From UHGV virus genome UHGV-2199876: DNA of 29,731 nucleotides. The stretch is one strand, 5' to 3'. This document shows positions 993-11,109 of the stretch, one piece after another. Both the position numbers and the translations under genes were made by a program. Below the pieces are notes generated by a model, which saw only the letters and a list, made by a program, of their open reading frames with translations, was not told where the DNA came from and did not search any database. Position 1 is the stretch's first letter. Every line of letters starts with the position of its first letter. The DNA comes from a virus.

Positions 993-3392
993 ATGGCAGC
1001 AGTAAAAATCTCAGGTGTGCTGAAAGATGGTGCGGGAAAACCAATACAGAACTGCACTATTCAACTGAAGGCAAAGCGTAACAGCACCACGGTACTGGTG
1101 AACACGGTGGCTTCTGAAAATCCGGATGAAGCCGGACGTTACAGCATGGATGTTGAGTATGGCCAGTACAGCGTCACCCTGCTGGTTGAAGGTTTTCCGC
1201 CTTCACATGCCGGGACCATTACCGTCTATGAAGGTTCCAGACCAGGTACGCTGAATGATTTTCTCGGTGCCATGACGGAAGATGATGTCATGCCGGAGGC
1301 ATTGCGCCGTTTTGAGGCAATGGTGGAAGAAGCGGCACGCAACGCCGAAGCCGCCTCTCAGAGCGCAGCGGCGGCAAAGAAATCCGAAACTGCAGCGGCT
1401 TCATCGAAGAACGCGGCGAAAACCTCAGAAACGAATGCAGCTAACAGCGCACAGGCGGCAGCGACCTCGCAGACTGCATCGGCAAACTCCGCGACAGCAG
1501 CCAAAAAATCAGAAACCAACGCGAAAAACAGCGAGACAGCCGCAAAGACGAGCGAAACCAACGCAAAGTCCAGCCAGACGGCAGCGAAAACCAGCGAAAC
1601 GAATGCCAAAGCCAGTGAAACTGCGGCGAAAAATAGCCAGAATGCAGCAGCCGAAAGCGAGAGTGCGGCAGCTGGTTCTGCGACTTCAGCAGCTGGATCA
1701 GCAACTGCTGCGGCTAACAGCCAGAAAGCAGCGAAGACGAGCGAAACTAACGCAAAGTCCAGCCAGACGGCAGCGAAGACCAGCGAAACGAATGCCAAAG
1801 CCAGCGAAACTGCGGCGAAAAGCAGTCAGGATGCAGCAGCTGAAAGCGAGAGTGCCGCAGCTGGTTCTGCAAGTGCGGCGGCTGCTTCTGCCACTGCATC
1901 AGCAAACAGTCAAAAAGCTGCAAAAACCAGTGAAACCAACGCAAAGGCGAGCGAGACTGCGGCTGCGAACTCGGCGCAAGCATCGGCAGCAAGCCAGACA
2001 GCAGCTAAAGCAAGTGAGGATGCAGCCAGAGAGTATGCAAGCCAGGCTGCGGAGCCGTATAAACAAGTATTGCAGCCACTTCCTGATGTGTGGATACCAT
2101 TTAACGATTCGCTGGATATGATTACGGGGTTTTCGCCGTCATATAAAAAGATTGTTATTGGTGATGATGAAATAACGATGCCTGGCGACAAGGTTGTTAA
2201 GTTTAAACGCGCATCGAAAGCAACCTATATTAATAAATCTGGTGTGTTGACAGAGGCTGCCATTGACGAGCCACGGTTTGAACGTGATGGCCTGCTTATT
2301 GAGGGGCAAAGAACAAACTACATGCTCAATTCGGAAAGCCCTGCCAGTTGGGGGCGATCGTCAAATATGGATGTTCCCGAAACAGGGACGGATAATTTTG
2401 GTTTTACCTATGGAAAGTTTGTCTGCAACGATTCTCTGATTGGGAAAACCTCAGCCATTAATATGGCATCAATTGCTGCAACAAAGTCAGTTGATGTCTC
2501 AGGCGATAATAAATACGTGACAACCTCATGTCGTTTTAAAACAGAACTGCAGGTAAGGTTGCGTATCCGGTTTGATAAATATGACGGTAGCGCAACAACT
2601 TTTCTTGGTGATGCGTATATTGATACACAAACGCTTGAAATTAATATGACAGGTGGTGCTTCCGGTAGAATTACGGCACGAGTCAGGAAGGATGAAACTA
2701 CAGGATGGATTTTTGCTGAGGCAACAATTCAGGCAATTGATGGTGAGTTAAAAATAGGCTCTCAGATACAGTATTCACCTAAGCAGGGAGGGGCAACCGT
2801 ATCAGGTGACTATATTTATCTGGCTACCCCACAAGTAGAGAATGGGGCTTGTGTATCATCTTTTATTATATCAGGAACGACGGCGGCGACTCGTGCGAGT
2901 GATATGGTTACGATCCCGACCGAAAACAACATTTATAACAGACCGCTTACTTGTTTGGTCGAGGTTAACAGGAATTGGGGCGATATTCCTCCTAATGTAG
3001 CACCGCGTATTTTTGATTTTTCTGGTGTGCCGCCTATTGAGTCAATCACATACGCTTTTAACACAACCGAGAAATATTACGGTCAGCTTTATATGCAAAC
3101 TTATAAAGCGTCGACAAGTACTTACGTTTCTAGTGTGTTTGCTGGTCGAACTGATGTTCGAAAATTCATTGGTGGTTTTAATATTTATTCTGATGGTACT
3201 AAACGAGTAGTTTCTAACGGTGAGGCTACTAAAACCATGAAAACGGAGTGGACGGGCGTAAAAACACGGACCTTTATTCGAATTGGAGGTCAAGCCACAT
3301 CGGGAACTCGTCATCTATTCGGCCATTTGAGAAATCTTCGTCTCTGGCATAAAGAATTAACTGATGCGCAAATGGGGGAGAGTATTAAATGA
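993..3392 (+). CDS. stf: Side tail fibre protein (lambda Stf-like N-terminus, alanine-rich repeat shaft, divergent C-terminal domain)
   Basis: The N-terminus (AVKISGVLKDG..KP.QNCTIQLKA..NSTTV, SMDVEYGQYSV) matches lambda Stf as I remember it. The middle is K-(T/S)-SETNAK-type alanine-rich phage tail-fibre repeats. The ORF track starts at GTG 987; the ATG at 993 has better SD spacing (GGAG at 984-987). Confidence 0.85.
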   Translation: MAAVKISGVLKDGAGKPIQNCTIQLKAKRNSTTVLVNTVASENPDEAGRYSMDVEYGQYSVTLLVEGFPPSHAGTITVYEGSRPGTLNDFLGAMTEDDVMPEALRRFEAMVEEAARNAEAASQSAAAAKKSETAAASSKNAAKTSETNAANSAQAAATSQTASANSATAAKKSETNAKNSETAAKTSETNAKSSQTAAKTSETNAKASETAAKNSQNAAAESESAAAGSATSAAGSATAAANSQKAAKTSETNAKSSQTAAKTSETNAKASETAAKSSQDAAAESESAAAGSASAAAASATASANSQKAAKTSETNAKASETAAANSAQASAASQTAAKASEDAAREYASQAAEPYKQVLQPLPDVWIPFNDSLDMITGFSPSYKKIVIGDDEITMPGDKVVKFKRASKATYINKSGVLTEAAIDEPRFERDGLLIEGQRTNYMLNSESPASWGRSSNMDVPETGTDNFGFTYGKFVCNDSLIGKTSAINMASIAATKSVDVSGDNKYVTTSCRFKTELQVRLRIRFDKYDGSATTFLGDAYIDTQTLEINMTGGASGRITARVRKDETTGWIFAEATIQAIDGELKIGSQIQYSPKQGGATVSGDYIYLATPQVENGACVSSFIISGTTAATRASDMVTIPTENNIYNRPLTCLVEVNRNWGDIPPNVAPRIFDFSGVPPIESITYAFNTTEKYYGQLYMQTYKASTSTYVSSVFAGRTDVRKFIGGFNIYSDGTKRVVSNGEATKTMKTEWTGVKTRTFIRIGGQATSGTRHLFGHLRNLRLWHKELTDAQMGESIK
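1542..1919 (+). repeat. Tandem duplication of a 189-bp (63-codon) unit inside the tail fibre shaft
   Basis: The unit starting gcaaagacgagcgaaaccaacgcaaagtccagccagacggcagcg at 1542 recurs almost identically from 1731, with only scattered substitutions. Confidence 0.8.
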
Positions 3393-7902: not shown

Positions 7903-9816
7903 ATGAGCAAAGTAAAAATCGGTGAATTAATAAACTCACTTGTTAGCGATGTTGAGTCAATAGATAACTCTGACCGTCCTCAAGGGGAGAAAACAAAAAA
8001 AATAAAGGCTGTTGCATTAAAATTTAAAAATGCATTATTTAATGACAAGCGAAAGTTTAGGGGTAAAGGATTAGAAAAAAGAATTACAGCCAACACATTC
8101 AATGCCTATATGAGCAGGGCCAGAAAACGGTTTGATGATAAACTTCATCATAGCTTTGAAAAAAATATACATCGCCTATCTGAAAAGTATCCTTTATATA
8201 ATGAGGAGCTATTATCATGGCTTTCTCTACCTGCTGCCGATATTCGCCAGAGAATGTCAGCTTTACAGGCAAAATTAAAATTAATTCTCCCTCTATCAGA
8301 AGATTTATCTAATATCAGAATTGGCGATAACAAAAATCATAATAAGTTATTAAAATTATCAAATAAATATAAAGAGTGGCAATTCGCCATTTCTGATTTA
8401 ACTAGCGATAACTGGAAAGATAAGCGCGATTATTTATATAAATTACTACAGCAAGGATCTGCCTTACTTGAGGAGTTGAATCAGCTAAAAGTTAACCATG
8501 AGATTCTCTATCATCTTCAACTAAGCCCTGCCGAACGCGCATCTATCCAGCAACGATGGGCGGACGTTCTGCACAATAAGAAACGTAACGTGGTGGTCAT
8601 TGATTACCCCAAATATATGCAAGCTATTTACGATATTATAAATAGCCCTGCTACATTAAATAATCTAAACACTCGTTCAGGTATGGCTCCTTTGGCATTT
8701 GCACTTGCTGCATTGTCAGGAAGACGAATGATTGAGATTATGTATCAAGGTACATTTACTGTTTCTGGTAAGTATACCGTTGATTTTTTAGGCCAAGCAA
8801 AAAAAAGAACTTCTGATGATATAACCAGAAAAATATATACATTATGCGAAGCAAAAACATTTGTTTATTTAATAAATGTACTTCGCTCATGCCCAGCAGC
8901 ATCTGATTTTGATGATGTCGTTAAAGGTTATGGAGATAACGACACACGCTCTGAAAACGGACGGATTAATGCCATATTAGCAAAGGCTTTTAACCCGTGG
9001 GTTAAATCATTTTTCAAAGATGACCGCCGTGTTTATAAAGATAGTCGTGCTATTTATGCCCGTATTGCGTATGAAATGTTTTTCCGCGTAGATCCTCGTT
9101 GGAAAAACGTAGATGAGGATGTTTTCTTTATGGAAATTTTAGGCCATGACGATGAAAACACTCAATTACACTATAAGCAATTCAAGCTGGCCAACTTCTC
9201 AAAGACATGGAGGCCAAATACTGGAAACGAAAATACCAGGCTGGAAGCATTGCAGCAGCTTGATGACGAAATGCCAGGATTCGCCAGAGGAGATGCCGGA
9301 GTTCGTCTGCATAACACAGTTAAGCAGCTGGTAGAGCAGGACCCCTCTATAAAAATCACGAACAGCACTCTAAGAGCATTCAAATTTAGCCCTACAATGA
9401 TTAGTCGATACCTAGAATTTGCTGCTGATGCTCTGGGGCAATTTGTTGGCGAAAATGGACAATGGCAGCTGAAAATAGATTCTCCAGAAATCGTTATGCC
9501 TGACGAAGAAGAGCTGGAAGCAATACCTGAACAGACGGATGAATTATCAGAGGATGACGATCTGGATGACGACGAAATTGAGATAGAGATAGAGGAAGAG
9601 GAAGAGGAAGAGGAAGAGGAAGAGAGCGTAGAAGAACAGCAACCGCCCGCGCCTTCTTCACCTGTATCTAAGCCGGTATTTAAGCCTGTGAGAAATATTG
9701 GTGATGGATCATACGTTGTTGAATTTCATTATAATGGCCAGAATTATGCTTGGTCCGGCAGTGCAAACAGCCCTATATCAGCAATGCAGTTAGCATGGCT
9801 GACATATTTCGGATAA
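7903..9816 (+). CDS. telN: Protelomerase (telomere resolvase) TelN
   Basis: 637-aa ORF closely matching N15 TelN as I remember it (MSKVKIGELIN..., RITANTFNAYMSRARKRFDDKLHHSF, VVVIDYP, GRINAILAKAFNPWVKSFF). Acidic C-terminal tract. SD GGAGAGG upstream. Confidence 0.93.
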   Translation: MSKVKIGELINSLVSDVESIDNSDRPQGEKTKKIKAVALKFKNALFNDKRKFRGKGLEKRITANTFNAYMSRARKRFDDKLHHSFEKNIHRLSEKYPLYNEELLSWLSLPAADIRQRMSALQAKLKLILPLSEDLSNIRIGDNKNHNKLLKLSNKYKEWQFAISDLTSDNWKDKRDYLYKLLQQGSALLEELNQLKVNHEILYHLQLSPAERASIQQRWADVLHNKKRNVVVIDYPKYMQAIYDIINSPATLNNLNTRSGMAPLAFALAALSGRRMIEIMYQGTFTVSGKYTVDFLGQAKKRTSDDITRKIYTLCEAKTFVYLINVLRSCPAASDFDDVVKGYGDNDTRSENGRINAILAKAFNPWVKSFFKDDRRVYKDSRAIYARIAYEMFFRVDPRWKNVDEDVFFMEILGHDDENTQLHYKQFKLANFSKTWRPNTGNENTRLEALQQLDDEMPGFARGDAGVRLHNTVKQLVEQDPSIKITNSTLRAFKFSPTMISRYLEFAADALGQFVGENGQWQLKIDSPEIVMPDEEELEAIPEQTDELSEDDDLDDDEIEIEIEEEEEEEEEEESVEEQQPPAPSSPVSKPVFKPVRNIGDGSYVVEFHYNGQNYAWSGSANSPISAMQLAWLTYFG

Positions 9817-9829
9817 AGCATACGGTAAA

Positions 9830-9856
9830 GGCACCGAATTATCGGTGCCTTGTTGT
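9830..9856. terminator. Bidirectional terminator hairpin between telN and convergent minus-strand genes
   Basis: GGCACCGA-atta-TCGGTGCC perfect 8-bp stem followed by TTGTTGTGT. Confidence 0.6.
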
Positions 9857-9861
9857 GTGGT

Positions 9862-10026
9862 CTACCTCGCCTGCCCCTTTTCGTCCTCATCCAACTTTCT
9901 GATAGCCGTAGAATCAATACCCGCCGCCATACACACATCAGATGCAACAAACCACGGTTCGCCGTTGATCATCACTACACGAACCTGATGCTCTTCCTGA
10001 AAGGAAAAGACTGCTAACGCGCTCAT
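9862..10026 (-). CDS. Truncated Bro-N / antirepressor N-terminal-domain protein (54 aa; below the ORF-track length cutoff)
   Basis: Hand translation gives MSALAVFSFQEEHQVRVVMINGEPWFVASDVCMAAGIDSTAIRKLDEDEKGQAR, which fits the Bro-N/Ant N-terminal signature (F.F....R....GEPWFVA.DV......D....LD.DEK). Its ATG overlaps the stop of the upstream ORF (ATGA) with a GGAGG SD. Confidence 0.55.
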   Translation of the reverse strand: MSALAVFSFQEEHQVRVVMINGEPWFVASDVCMAAGIDSTAIRKLDEDEKGQAR

Positions 10027-10256
10027 TCAGCCTCCTTATCGCGCAGCAAGTGCGACGAGAGAGACGCAGAATATCCCTGTGCTTCATGCGTTAACTCACA
10101 CGCAATCTGCAGAAGTTTTCCAGCCTCTGAGAGGTAAATCGACGCCTCACAACTGGAGACTGTCCGATGGGCTGATGATACGAGCGCATAGACCTGAGCC
10201 AGACGTTCATCCAACGATTCCAGCAGGCCAACAGTGTTCATTTTTACCTGATTCAT
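10023..10256 (-). CDS. Small protein translationally coupled to the Bro-N ORF (candidate icd-like leader gene)
   Basis: 77-aa ORF with a GAGGTGG SD 4 nt upstream. Its stop overlaps the start of the Bro-N ORF, the same coupling seen for icd-ant in P1 immI. The icd-like label is by arrangement only. Confidence 0.4.
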   Translation of the reverse strand: MNQVKMNTVGLLESLDERLAQVYALVSSAHRTVSSCEASIYLSEAGKLLQIACELTHEAQGYSASLSSHLLRDKEAE

Positions 10257-10423
10257 GCAGCCACCTCGCGCACCGGAATACGGGCAGACAATACCAGGAC
10301 AAACCGGCTGGCGAACTGGCGACGAGCTTCCCGTTCAGATGACGCGATAGTGGAAAGATGATGAATGTGGGACTTTTTGTCTGTGCGAACGACTGCCGCA
10401 AATTTGAATTTGAACATGGTATG

Positions 10424-10640
10424 CACTCCGTTTTATTGGTCGTGCTACCACCAGAGTTGCGAATCTCTTTATTGGTGGTAGCCCAGGCGGGGTTCGCAAT
10501 ACCGGTAAACGAAGAAACCGGCCCGACCGAAGTCAGCCCCACCTGAGCCACCATAATTCGGATATGCGCAGGTCTATACACACAAAAAAACACGCTGGCG
10601 CGTGTTGTGCGCTTCGTTTTGCCAGGATTGCGAAGTCCCG
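10424..10640 (-). promoter_or_regulatory. Candidate RNA regulatory leader (structured, with mutually complementary heptamers) upstream of the icd-like/Bro-N ORFs
   Basis: About 530 bp with no credible ORF. Perfect 10-bp stem GCTACCACCA...TGGTGGTAGC (10444-10482) with TTGCGAA in its loop; the complementary TTCGCAA at 10495-10501; a second TTGCGAA at 10629-10635. Confidence 0.3.
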
Positions 10641-10797
10641 ACTGCGGGATTTACCGCAGCGAGGTGACTTTACCTCCAAAACGACGCACACGTCAATAAT
10701 TTGCAAAGACATTTTACCCCGTGACCAGTCACGGGGACAGGTGTTTTTATAGTTTGCTTGAACGAGTGATCAGAAGTTGATCGTTAATCAAAGGCCA

Positions 10798-11109
10798 TTA
10801 CGGATTAAGAGAGTGGAAATACCTAACTAACTTACCGGCATCATCACATTTTTCTTTATCTTCTTCCTTAACATAGCCGCGACAGAAGGCTGAATAAAAT
10901 TTCGCATTTTCAGAAGCAAAAGCAGCCGTCGAAAGGAGCAGTTCTTTGCATGATTCTTTTGATGCAGCATCGGGATTATTTTTACATGCAAGCTCCGCTG
11001 ATGAGTTAATAACAGAAATGCTATCTTCCTGGGCATAAACCGCAGCAGAAAAGGCAAAACATAAAACCAAAATAAAACTCTTCACTTTATCTCCTGTAAC
11101 AGTTATCAC
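10798..11109 (-). CDS. Small secreted cysteine-containing protein (103 aa, signal peptide)
   Basis: N-terminal hydrophobic signal (FILVLCFAFSAAVYAQ) and at least 4 Cys in the mature part. SD GGAG upstream. AT-rich relative to its neighbours. Confidence 0.5.
   Translation of the reverse strand: MITVTGDKVKSFILVLCFAFSAAVYAQEDSISVINSSAELACKNNPDAASKESCKELLLSTAAFASENAKFYSAFCRGYVKEEDKEKCDDAGKLVRYFHSLNP

Follow-up and report, generated by a model that had tools for sequence, protein, structure and literature searches.

A 54-codon Bro-N-like open reading frame in an N15-like plasmid prophage is most likely an inert remnant of antB

The 54-codon open reading frame (ORF) studied here is very probably an inert deletion remnant, namely the 5' stump of antB that was left by a single 738-bp deletion. 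The window, by which we mean the whole analyzed stretch of 29,731 nucleotides (virus genome UHGV-2199876), is an N15-like (Ravinvirus) linear plasmid prophage, the region matching phage PhiR46_1 at 99.9%, YDC107_1 at about 90% and N15 at 78%. It contains an N15-type immA (secondary-immunity or anti-immunity) operon, and the 54-codon ORF is the third and last gene of this operon (Table 1).

Table 1. Coordinates of the immA operon, the deletion junction and the convergent telN gene in the window.
Feature	Position	Strand	Evidence or remark
telN protelomerase, 637 aa	7903..9816	+	ORF list; annotated as protelomerase in YDC107_1, N15 and RefSeq plasmids
Hairpin, probable bidirectional terminator between antB remnant and telN	9828..9851		-21.5 kcal/mol, z -5.1
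antB remnant, 54 aa	9862..10026	-	AntB codons 1-51 (10026-9874) plus Gln-Ala-Arg-stop from the former 3' flank
Deletion junction, G run within AAAAGGGGCAGG	9874..9877	-	BLAST breakpoints and alignments; AGGG microhomology
antA, 77-aa antirepressor, intact	10023..10256	-	63% identity to N15 gp31, E 1e-29
icd, 54-aa cell-division inhibitor homologue, intact	10253..10417	-	95% identity to the C-terminal part of N15 gp32
C4-type antisense RNA gene, counterpart of N15 CA RNA	10471..10558	-	Rfam RF01695, 82.3 bits vs gathering threshold 45, full-length
isrK-like leader with intrinsic terminator at its end	10585..10660	-	Rfam RF01394, 52.8 bits vs gathering threshold 50
Promoter-like site (TTGACG, 18-nt spacer, TAAAGT), candidate operon promoter	10667..10696	-	Consensus scan only

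In N15, the immA locus comprises the CA RNA, icd (gene 32), antA (gene 31) and antB (gene 30) (Ravin et al., 1999, cited in PMC4488713). The order found in the window is promoter-like site, isrK-like leader with terminator, C4/CA RNA, icd, antA and antB remnant, and we assign the locus to the N15 type because of the C4 RNA match (82.3 bits), the identity of Icd (95%) and AntA (63%) to their N15 counterparts, and the convergent telN gene. The latter fixes the locus as N15-type, with an identical telN-convergent synteny in N15, phiKO2, YDC107_1 and every locus fetched. Like N15 immA, the window has the C4/CA RNA, icd as the first ORF and antA as the second, translationally coupled one; instead of an intact antB of 257-264 aa, however, the third ORF encodes 54 aa. 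Icd scored 67 bits against the cut-off of 25 of the NCBIfam model phage_ICD_like (NF033153). AntA matched phrog_10889 ('anti-repressor') of PHROG with an E-value of 1.3e-18 and its phiKO2 homologue is annotated as N15 AntA-like, while neither a Pfam nor an NCBIfam family matched it. ATGA overlaps of stop and start codons are found at both junctions, icd/antA and antA/54-codon ORF. The initial annotation had noted the second of these (10026-10023), which was borne out, and had likened it to icd-ant of phage P1. This likeness stands with regard to the C4 RNA (82 bits) and the presence of an Icd homologue, but it had been drawn at the wrong junction, the P1-like one being icd/antA (10256-10253). 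The 77-aa ORF that had been read as the Icd counterpart is in fact AntA, and Icd lies one gene further upstream, the labels having been shifted by one.

The leader terminator consists of a stem at 10606-10589 and a T run according to a terminator scan, and N15 is annotated with a rho-independent terminator at the equivalent place. Immunity control in N15 reportedly acts by transcription termination. For the candidate promoter the evidence is weak, with one site found in the scan versus 1.4 expected by chance. Within the C4 RNA, the unpaired AUUGCGAA is complementary to UUCGCAA(U) both upstream (approximately 10634-10627) and downstream (10463-10457) of the RNA gene, with the UUGCGAA of the RNA facing a UUCGCAA on either side, and the loop CUUCGUUU is complementary to AAACGAAG upstream. 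All complementarities found are short, and the duplex energies predicted for the C4 RNA with its flanking sequences were no better than those of shuffled sequences. A c4-a1b1 target match of 24.8 bits, below threshold, was seen in the leader region (10585-10673, minus strand).

Annotations of this RNA region differ between records. The 96-aa annotation of N15 gp32 reaches upstream across the C4/CA RNA gene (window 10253-10543, corresponding to 2673-2963 of the N15 locus L003), as does the older 'cA secondary immunity repressor' coding sequence of U63086; the conserved Icd ORF corresponds only to the last 54-57 codons of N15 gene 32. Small 'ash family protein' ORFs are called over the RNA region in some RefSeq records. 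Beyond the promoter-like site, the window contains a 103-aa ORF (10798-11109, minus strand) with a hydrophobic N-terminus and several cysteines; it carries the putative label 'Spackle exclusion protein' in PhiR46_1, and its sole match is phrog_26765, of unknown function (E 2.9e-63). On the other side of the operon, the 3' part of telN (9540-9660, plus strand) encodes a Glu/Asp-rich low-complexity tract (…EIEIEIEEEEEEEEEEES…) near the TelN C-terminus. The length of this tract differs among relatives, with indels on the 12-bp scale relative to YDC107_1, and annotated TelN proteins range from 629 to 643 aa.

The 54-codon ORF starts with an ATG and is preceded at a distance of 4 nt by AAGGAGG. Its product had been described from the sequence as a truncated Bro-N-like protein on the minus strand, and the profile search confirmed this description with a significant match to Bro-N (Pfam PF02498; 30.7 bits versus a cut-off of 25.6, E 4.8e-7), covering only profile positions 1-41 of 96. 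PHROG antirepressor families matched with E-values from 2.6e-18 to 1e-5, over about 52 positions of profiles that are 150-480 positions long. The combination of an N-terminal Bro-N domain with a C-terminal effector domain, as in the PHROG 'anti-repressor Ant' families, is missing in the product, the C-terminal 207 residues of AntB being deleted. The product is 89% identical to the N-terminus of the 258-aa AntB of YDC107_1 and 61% identical to N15 gp30 over the first 51 residues. NCBIfam has no family matching either the stump or intact AntB. Public annotations already call the ORF (XSB42742.1; RefSeq WP_001542490.1, 'BRO-N domain-containing protein'). As the initial annotation had stated, it ends just before a bidirectional terminator: a hairpin with a 10-bp stem lies between its stop codon and that of telN and is conserved in YDC107_1, and the equivalent site is marked as a 'putative bidirectional' terminator in the phiKO2 GenBank record.

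Comparison with intact relatives shows how the ORF came to be short. Relative to YDC107_1, 738 bp are absent (positions 1677-2414 of its locus L001), with window 9500-9877 aligning to 1313-1679 and window 9875-10782 to 2415-3322 of that locus, and with the crossover inside AGGG/GGGGG. The lost DNA comprises AntB codons 52-258 together with 113 of the 172 bp that form the spacer 3' of antB, and the terminator hairpin directly beyond it is preserved. As the deleted length is divisible by three, the reading frame continues with Gln-Ala-Arg and then TAG. One microhomology-mediated deletion fused AntB codon 51 in frame to three codons of the flank and their stop codon. The comparison with antA/antB of N15, where AntB has 264 aa, likewise shows that the C-terminal part was lost through this deletion. 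In YDC107_1, a hydrophobic 60-aa ORF is annotated between antB and telN (L001 1591-1773), and part of it is deleted in the window. We take this ORF to be probably spurious as a gene, since it has no family match and shares its sequence with both the terminator hairpin and the end of telN.

Intact AntB proteins are 257-264 aa long (258 in YDC107_1) and are matched by the entire Bro-N profile (1-96 of 96), at residues 14-102 or 15-108; Pfam gave no match to their C-terminal part. An AlphaFold2 (AF2) model of an intact close relative, built from a shallow alignment, reached pLDDT values of 77-88 over residues 11-80 and of 50-66 in the C-terminal half. Its Bro-N elements lie within residues 5-107 (E5-9, E13-20, E23-27, H28-35, H39-44, E50-57, E60-67, H69-77, H80-83, H88-107). 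By this model, the stump, whose AntB part ends at residue 51, keeps beta1-beta3 and alpha1-alpha2 and lacks beta4-beta5, alpha3-alpha5 and the conserved C-terminal helical part, which amounts to a loss of five of the ten Bro-N secondary-structure elements. In a Foldseek search of the model against the PDB, the only confident match was 4ye7, the N-terminal domain of baculovirus Orf22 (E 0.02, 108 columns), with nothing usable for the C-terminal half; a PDB sequence search with intact AntB found no match at E-values up to 1.

Across 23 intact AntB sequences from five genera, residues 1-27 and 69-258 are almost invariant, and according to these alignments intact antB is under strong purifying selection across genera. 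The plasmids concerned come from Escherichia, Klebsiella, Enterobacter, Citrobacter and Salmonella. Residues of approximately 28-68, inside Bro-N, form discrete, shuffled sequence types similar to a specificity cassette (its retained part corresponds to window 9945-9874). The cassette type of YDC107_1 AntB (…ASDVCMAAGIDSTAIRKLDEDEKG…) is the same as in the window, and among the intact forms found this protein comes closest to the ancestral allele.

The deletion is not restricted to the window. The identical junction occurs in all 23 sequences retrieved with it; seven of these are IMG/VR contigs and eight are contigs from metagenomes, and the others are finished plasmids of Escherichia coli and Shigella together with the phage record of PhiR46_1. 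Among 5426 complete E. coli genomes, 17 hold the locus, 13 with the deletion versus four with intact antB, and PLSDB records of Escherichia and Shigella are divided into 17 with the 738-bp deletion versus nine intact ones. The exact stump protein occurs in 6394 index blocks versus 774, 508 and 288 for the three commonest intact alleles, counts that are only indicative as exact-sequence matching favors short proteins. The 738-bp allele accompanies two versions of antA, between which 17 of 234 nt differ, and its sources include poultry, pets, humans, a panda, Shigella and wastewater. The phage genome of PhiR46_1, which was deposited as complete, has this antB deletion allele as well, suggesting that the phage life cycle tolerates the loss of antB; no paper on this phage or on PV340565 turned up in a literature search. 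Several of the 'circular' records of 62-92 kb hold two telN-immA copies, in at least one case inverted and a few kb apart. These records (L042/L043 on JAJOME010000004.1, 90 kb; NZ_CP019258.1, 75 kb; CP088430.1, 91.5 kb) have the appearance of dimers joined head to head or of misassembled linear plasmids with hairpin ends.

A search with the stump revealed two more short products in the slot between antA and telN, that is, in the order icd(54)-antA(77)-X-telN (loci L030-L037). In the first, an in-frame deletion of 588 bp joins AntB residue 35 to the last 26 residues, giving a 61-aa protein (166 blocks). In the second, an in-frame deletion of 636 bp joins residue 28 to the last 17 residues, and the stop codon is mutated to Tyr, with read-through to the same TAG as in the window, giving an 87-aa protein (41 blocks) of which a 31-aa nonsense derivative also exists. 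Rare frameshifted alleles of the intact type (P0003, P0009) were found as well. A comparison of these alleles shows that at least three independent events have inactivated antB in E. coli plasmids. All three deletion lengths are multiples of three (probability by chance approximately 0.04-0.11), and the conserved N-terminal 27-28 residues of AntB survive in all three deletion alleles. Both features could reflect a residual function, or chance together with ascertainment through searches for short proteins.

This pattern raises the question of whether the loss of antB was selected. According to such a reading, the stump itself is idle, but deletion of antB is favored in Escherichia hosts, where knock-outs would arise repeatedly and spread; we regard this as possible, though on balance doubtful, and we are equally tentative about the corollary that the 54-aa stump marks the knock-out deletion with the greatest success among three or more independent ones. 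The cost of AntB might lie in destabilization of the plasmid prophage (induction, plasmid loss), in toxicity or in recognition by host defence. Three independent large deletions at the same syntenic gene, together with the rare frameshifts, speak for selected loss, as do the predominance of the 738-bp allele over intact antB in all three counts and its occurrence on two antA backgrounds in varied hosts and sources. The strong conservation of intact antB across genera further argues that its loss is not simply the fate of a useless gene. However, the bias of the block counts toward short proteins weighs against this reading, public sampling of E. coli is clonal and clinical, such that hitch-hiking or drift could look alike, and the additional deletions came from a search with a short query, which entails ascertainment bias. 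Moreover, relatives in Klebsiella (174 records), Enterobacter and Citrobacter retain antB. The contrast between conservation where antB is intact and its repeated loss suggests either a host-specific cost of AntB or dispensability combined with drift and clonal sampling. Selected loss is in any case compatible with the stump being an inert remnant.

Substitution patterns in the stump are in line with an inert remnant. Ten nucleotide haplotypes of the 165-nt stump occur among the 23 deletion alleles. The differences at nt 18, 45, 60, 69 and 123 also occur in intact or other alleles and may be due to inheritance or import, while four nonsynonymous changes (Q10P, A35S, G36S, L45F), one synonymous change (nt 93) and one frameshift are private to the deletion lineage. 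The frameshift is a 4-bp deletion at stump codon 15 (L006, CP088746.1) that stops the frame at codon 16. Its sub-lineage is represented by a 36-aa 'BRO family protein, partial' (P0138) called on 203 contigs, including Shigella sonnei, and it is therefore no isolated read error. A stump variant with Q10P, A35S and L45F is found on 148 contigs, and W25R, S8Y, D48H and others were also seen; Q10, W25 and L45 are invariant in the 23 intact AntB proteins of the five genera. For the same allele pairs, antA shows three nonsynonymous versus 14 synonymous differences and icd zero to one versus two to three. These small numbers of substitutions point to a relaxed constraint on the stump and a maintained constraint on icd and antA. 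The deletion being young, the small counts would also be compatible with weak constraint on the stump; 18 of the 23 sequenced deletion alleles still encode the 54-aa product or its E23D variant. Cluster size (51 stump versus 16 AntA variants) was rejected as a proxy for constraint, as it is confounded by differences between the underlying populations.

The initial annotation had left two options, a decayed antirepressor or a minimal single-domain variant. In the second case, the 54-aa mini-protein would be functional, for example by pairing in a dominant-negative manner with AntB from superinfecting relatives or by assisting AntA, which we consider improbable. The strong ribosome-binding site and the translational coupling are kept, conservation within the Bro-N half of AntB is highest over the N-terminal 27 residues, and the majority of stump alleles are unchanged, as a functional mini-protein would lead one to expect. 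Yet the stump comprises less than half of Bro-N, with half of the structure elements gone; the frameshift lineage abolishes the 54-aa product altogether, and Q10P, L45F and W25R strike invariant residues. The other deletion alleles, in addition, retain different segments of AntB (35+26 residues, or 28+17 residues plus a read-through tail). The first option was the right one: the ORF is a deletion stump in which a frameshift lineage and changes at invariant residues are accumulating. An artefact, be it a sequencing frameshift or a collapsed assembly of intact antB, is close to inconceivable: close relatives such as YDC107_1 do carry the intact 258-aa gene, and the initial annotation had named a full-length orthologue as the sign of such a frameshift, yet the difference is a clean 738-bp gap and no frameshift, and it is genuine, the same junction recurring in 23 sequences that were produced independently of each other (metagenomes, finished plasmids and a phage genome deposit among them). 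Thousands of assemblies share the deletion, and the exact product is listed in 6394 index blocks.

As the Shine-Dalgarno sequence and the ATGA overlap with antA are retained, the stump is probably still translated whenever the operon is expressed. We posit that upon derepression of immA, ribosomes finishing antA would reinitiate at the overlapping ATG and make the 54-aa fragment. This fragment would be unable to form the Bro-N fold and would lack the C-terminal domain, leaving it inactive. Considering the domain coverage, the frameshift lineage and the changes at invariant residues, the stump is most likely inactive and evolving neutrally. Anti-repression by the window operon would then be carried by AntA alone, and the auxiliary contribution of AntB would be lost.

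Earlier work on related phages is consistent with the dispensability of antB. The immA locus of N15 and phiKO2 has been described as an operon that encodes AntA, Icd and AntB, the function of AntB being 'not elucidated', and PY54 lacks antB (PMC4488713, PMC10612081). Expression of AntA by itself is used to increase the copy number of vectors derived from N15 (PMC2847241). According to this literature, AntA is sufficient to derepress N15-derived replicons, which supports antB being dispensable. In the phiKO2 GenBank record the trio appears in the order icd, 'antirepressor AntA' and 'auxilary anti-repressor AntB', and the label 'auxiliary antirepressor' for AntB rests on this record and on secondary citations. 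The Bro-N gene is thus not the antirepressor proper for which it had been taken, but antB, which is described only as auxiliary or of unelucidated function.

Among the known systems, N15 immA resembles the window locus in its slot converging on telN, its gene order, its ATGA-type coupling and the C4-type RNA and leader terminator upstream, and differs in its intact antB, of which the window has lost codons 52 onward together with 113 bp of the flank. The operons of the Klebsiella phage phiKO2 (gp29-gp28-gp27) and of the E. coli Ravinvirus YDC107_1 are the same and have the same putative bidirectional terminator, but encode full-length AntB of 258-260 aa. The Yersinia phage PY54 is a telomere phage that functions without antB and therefore sets a precedent for its dispensability; there, however, antB is wholly absent and antA and icd are separated, whereas the window operon is intact except for the recent, stump-leaving deletion.

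In the immI operon of phage P1, a C4-family RNA is processed from the operon leader, and icd comes first and is followed by the antirepressor gene (ant1/ant2), with the stop codon of the one overlapping the start codon of the other. The likeness of the window to P1 is based on the C4 RNA and Icd family matches, and by this analogy the locus would work like the P1 c4-icd-ant module, with the difference that its antirepressor AntA has 77 aa and no Pfam match. In Salmonella Gifsy-1, isrK precedes an antirepressor operon (isrK-orf45-anrP), as the leader does in the window; the leader (10660-10585) resembles isrK by RNA family only and matches the model (RF01394) barely above the threshold.

The window locus is an already annotated instance of a known operon with a common deletion allele. 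What our analysis adds is a correction of its annotation: the 54-aa 'BRO-N domain-containing protein' or 'antirepressor' is to be named an antB remnant, and the real antirepressor is its unnamed 77-aa neighbor. Public N15-like plasmid prophages of E. coli are mostly without a working antB, while a highly conserved antB is retained in their relatives from Klebsiella and Enterobacter. The losses in E. coli offer a natural knock-out handle on the role of AntB, and if they were indeed selected, AntB would have a host-specific cost in Escherichia.
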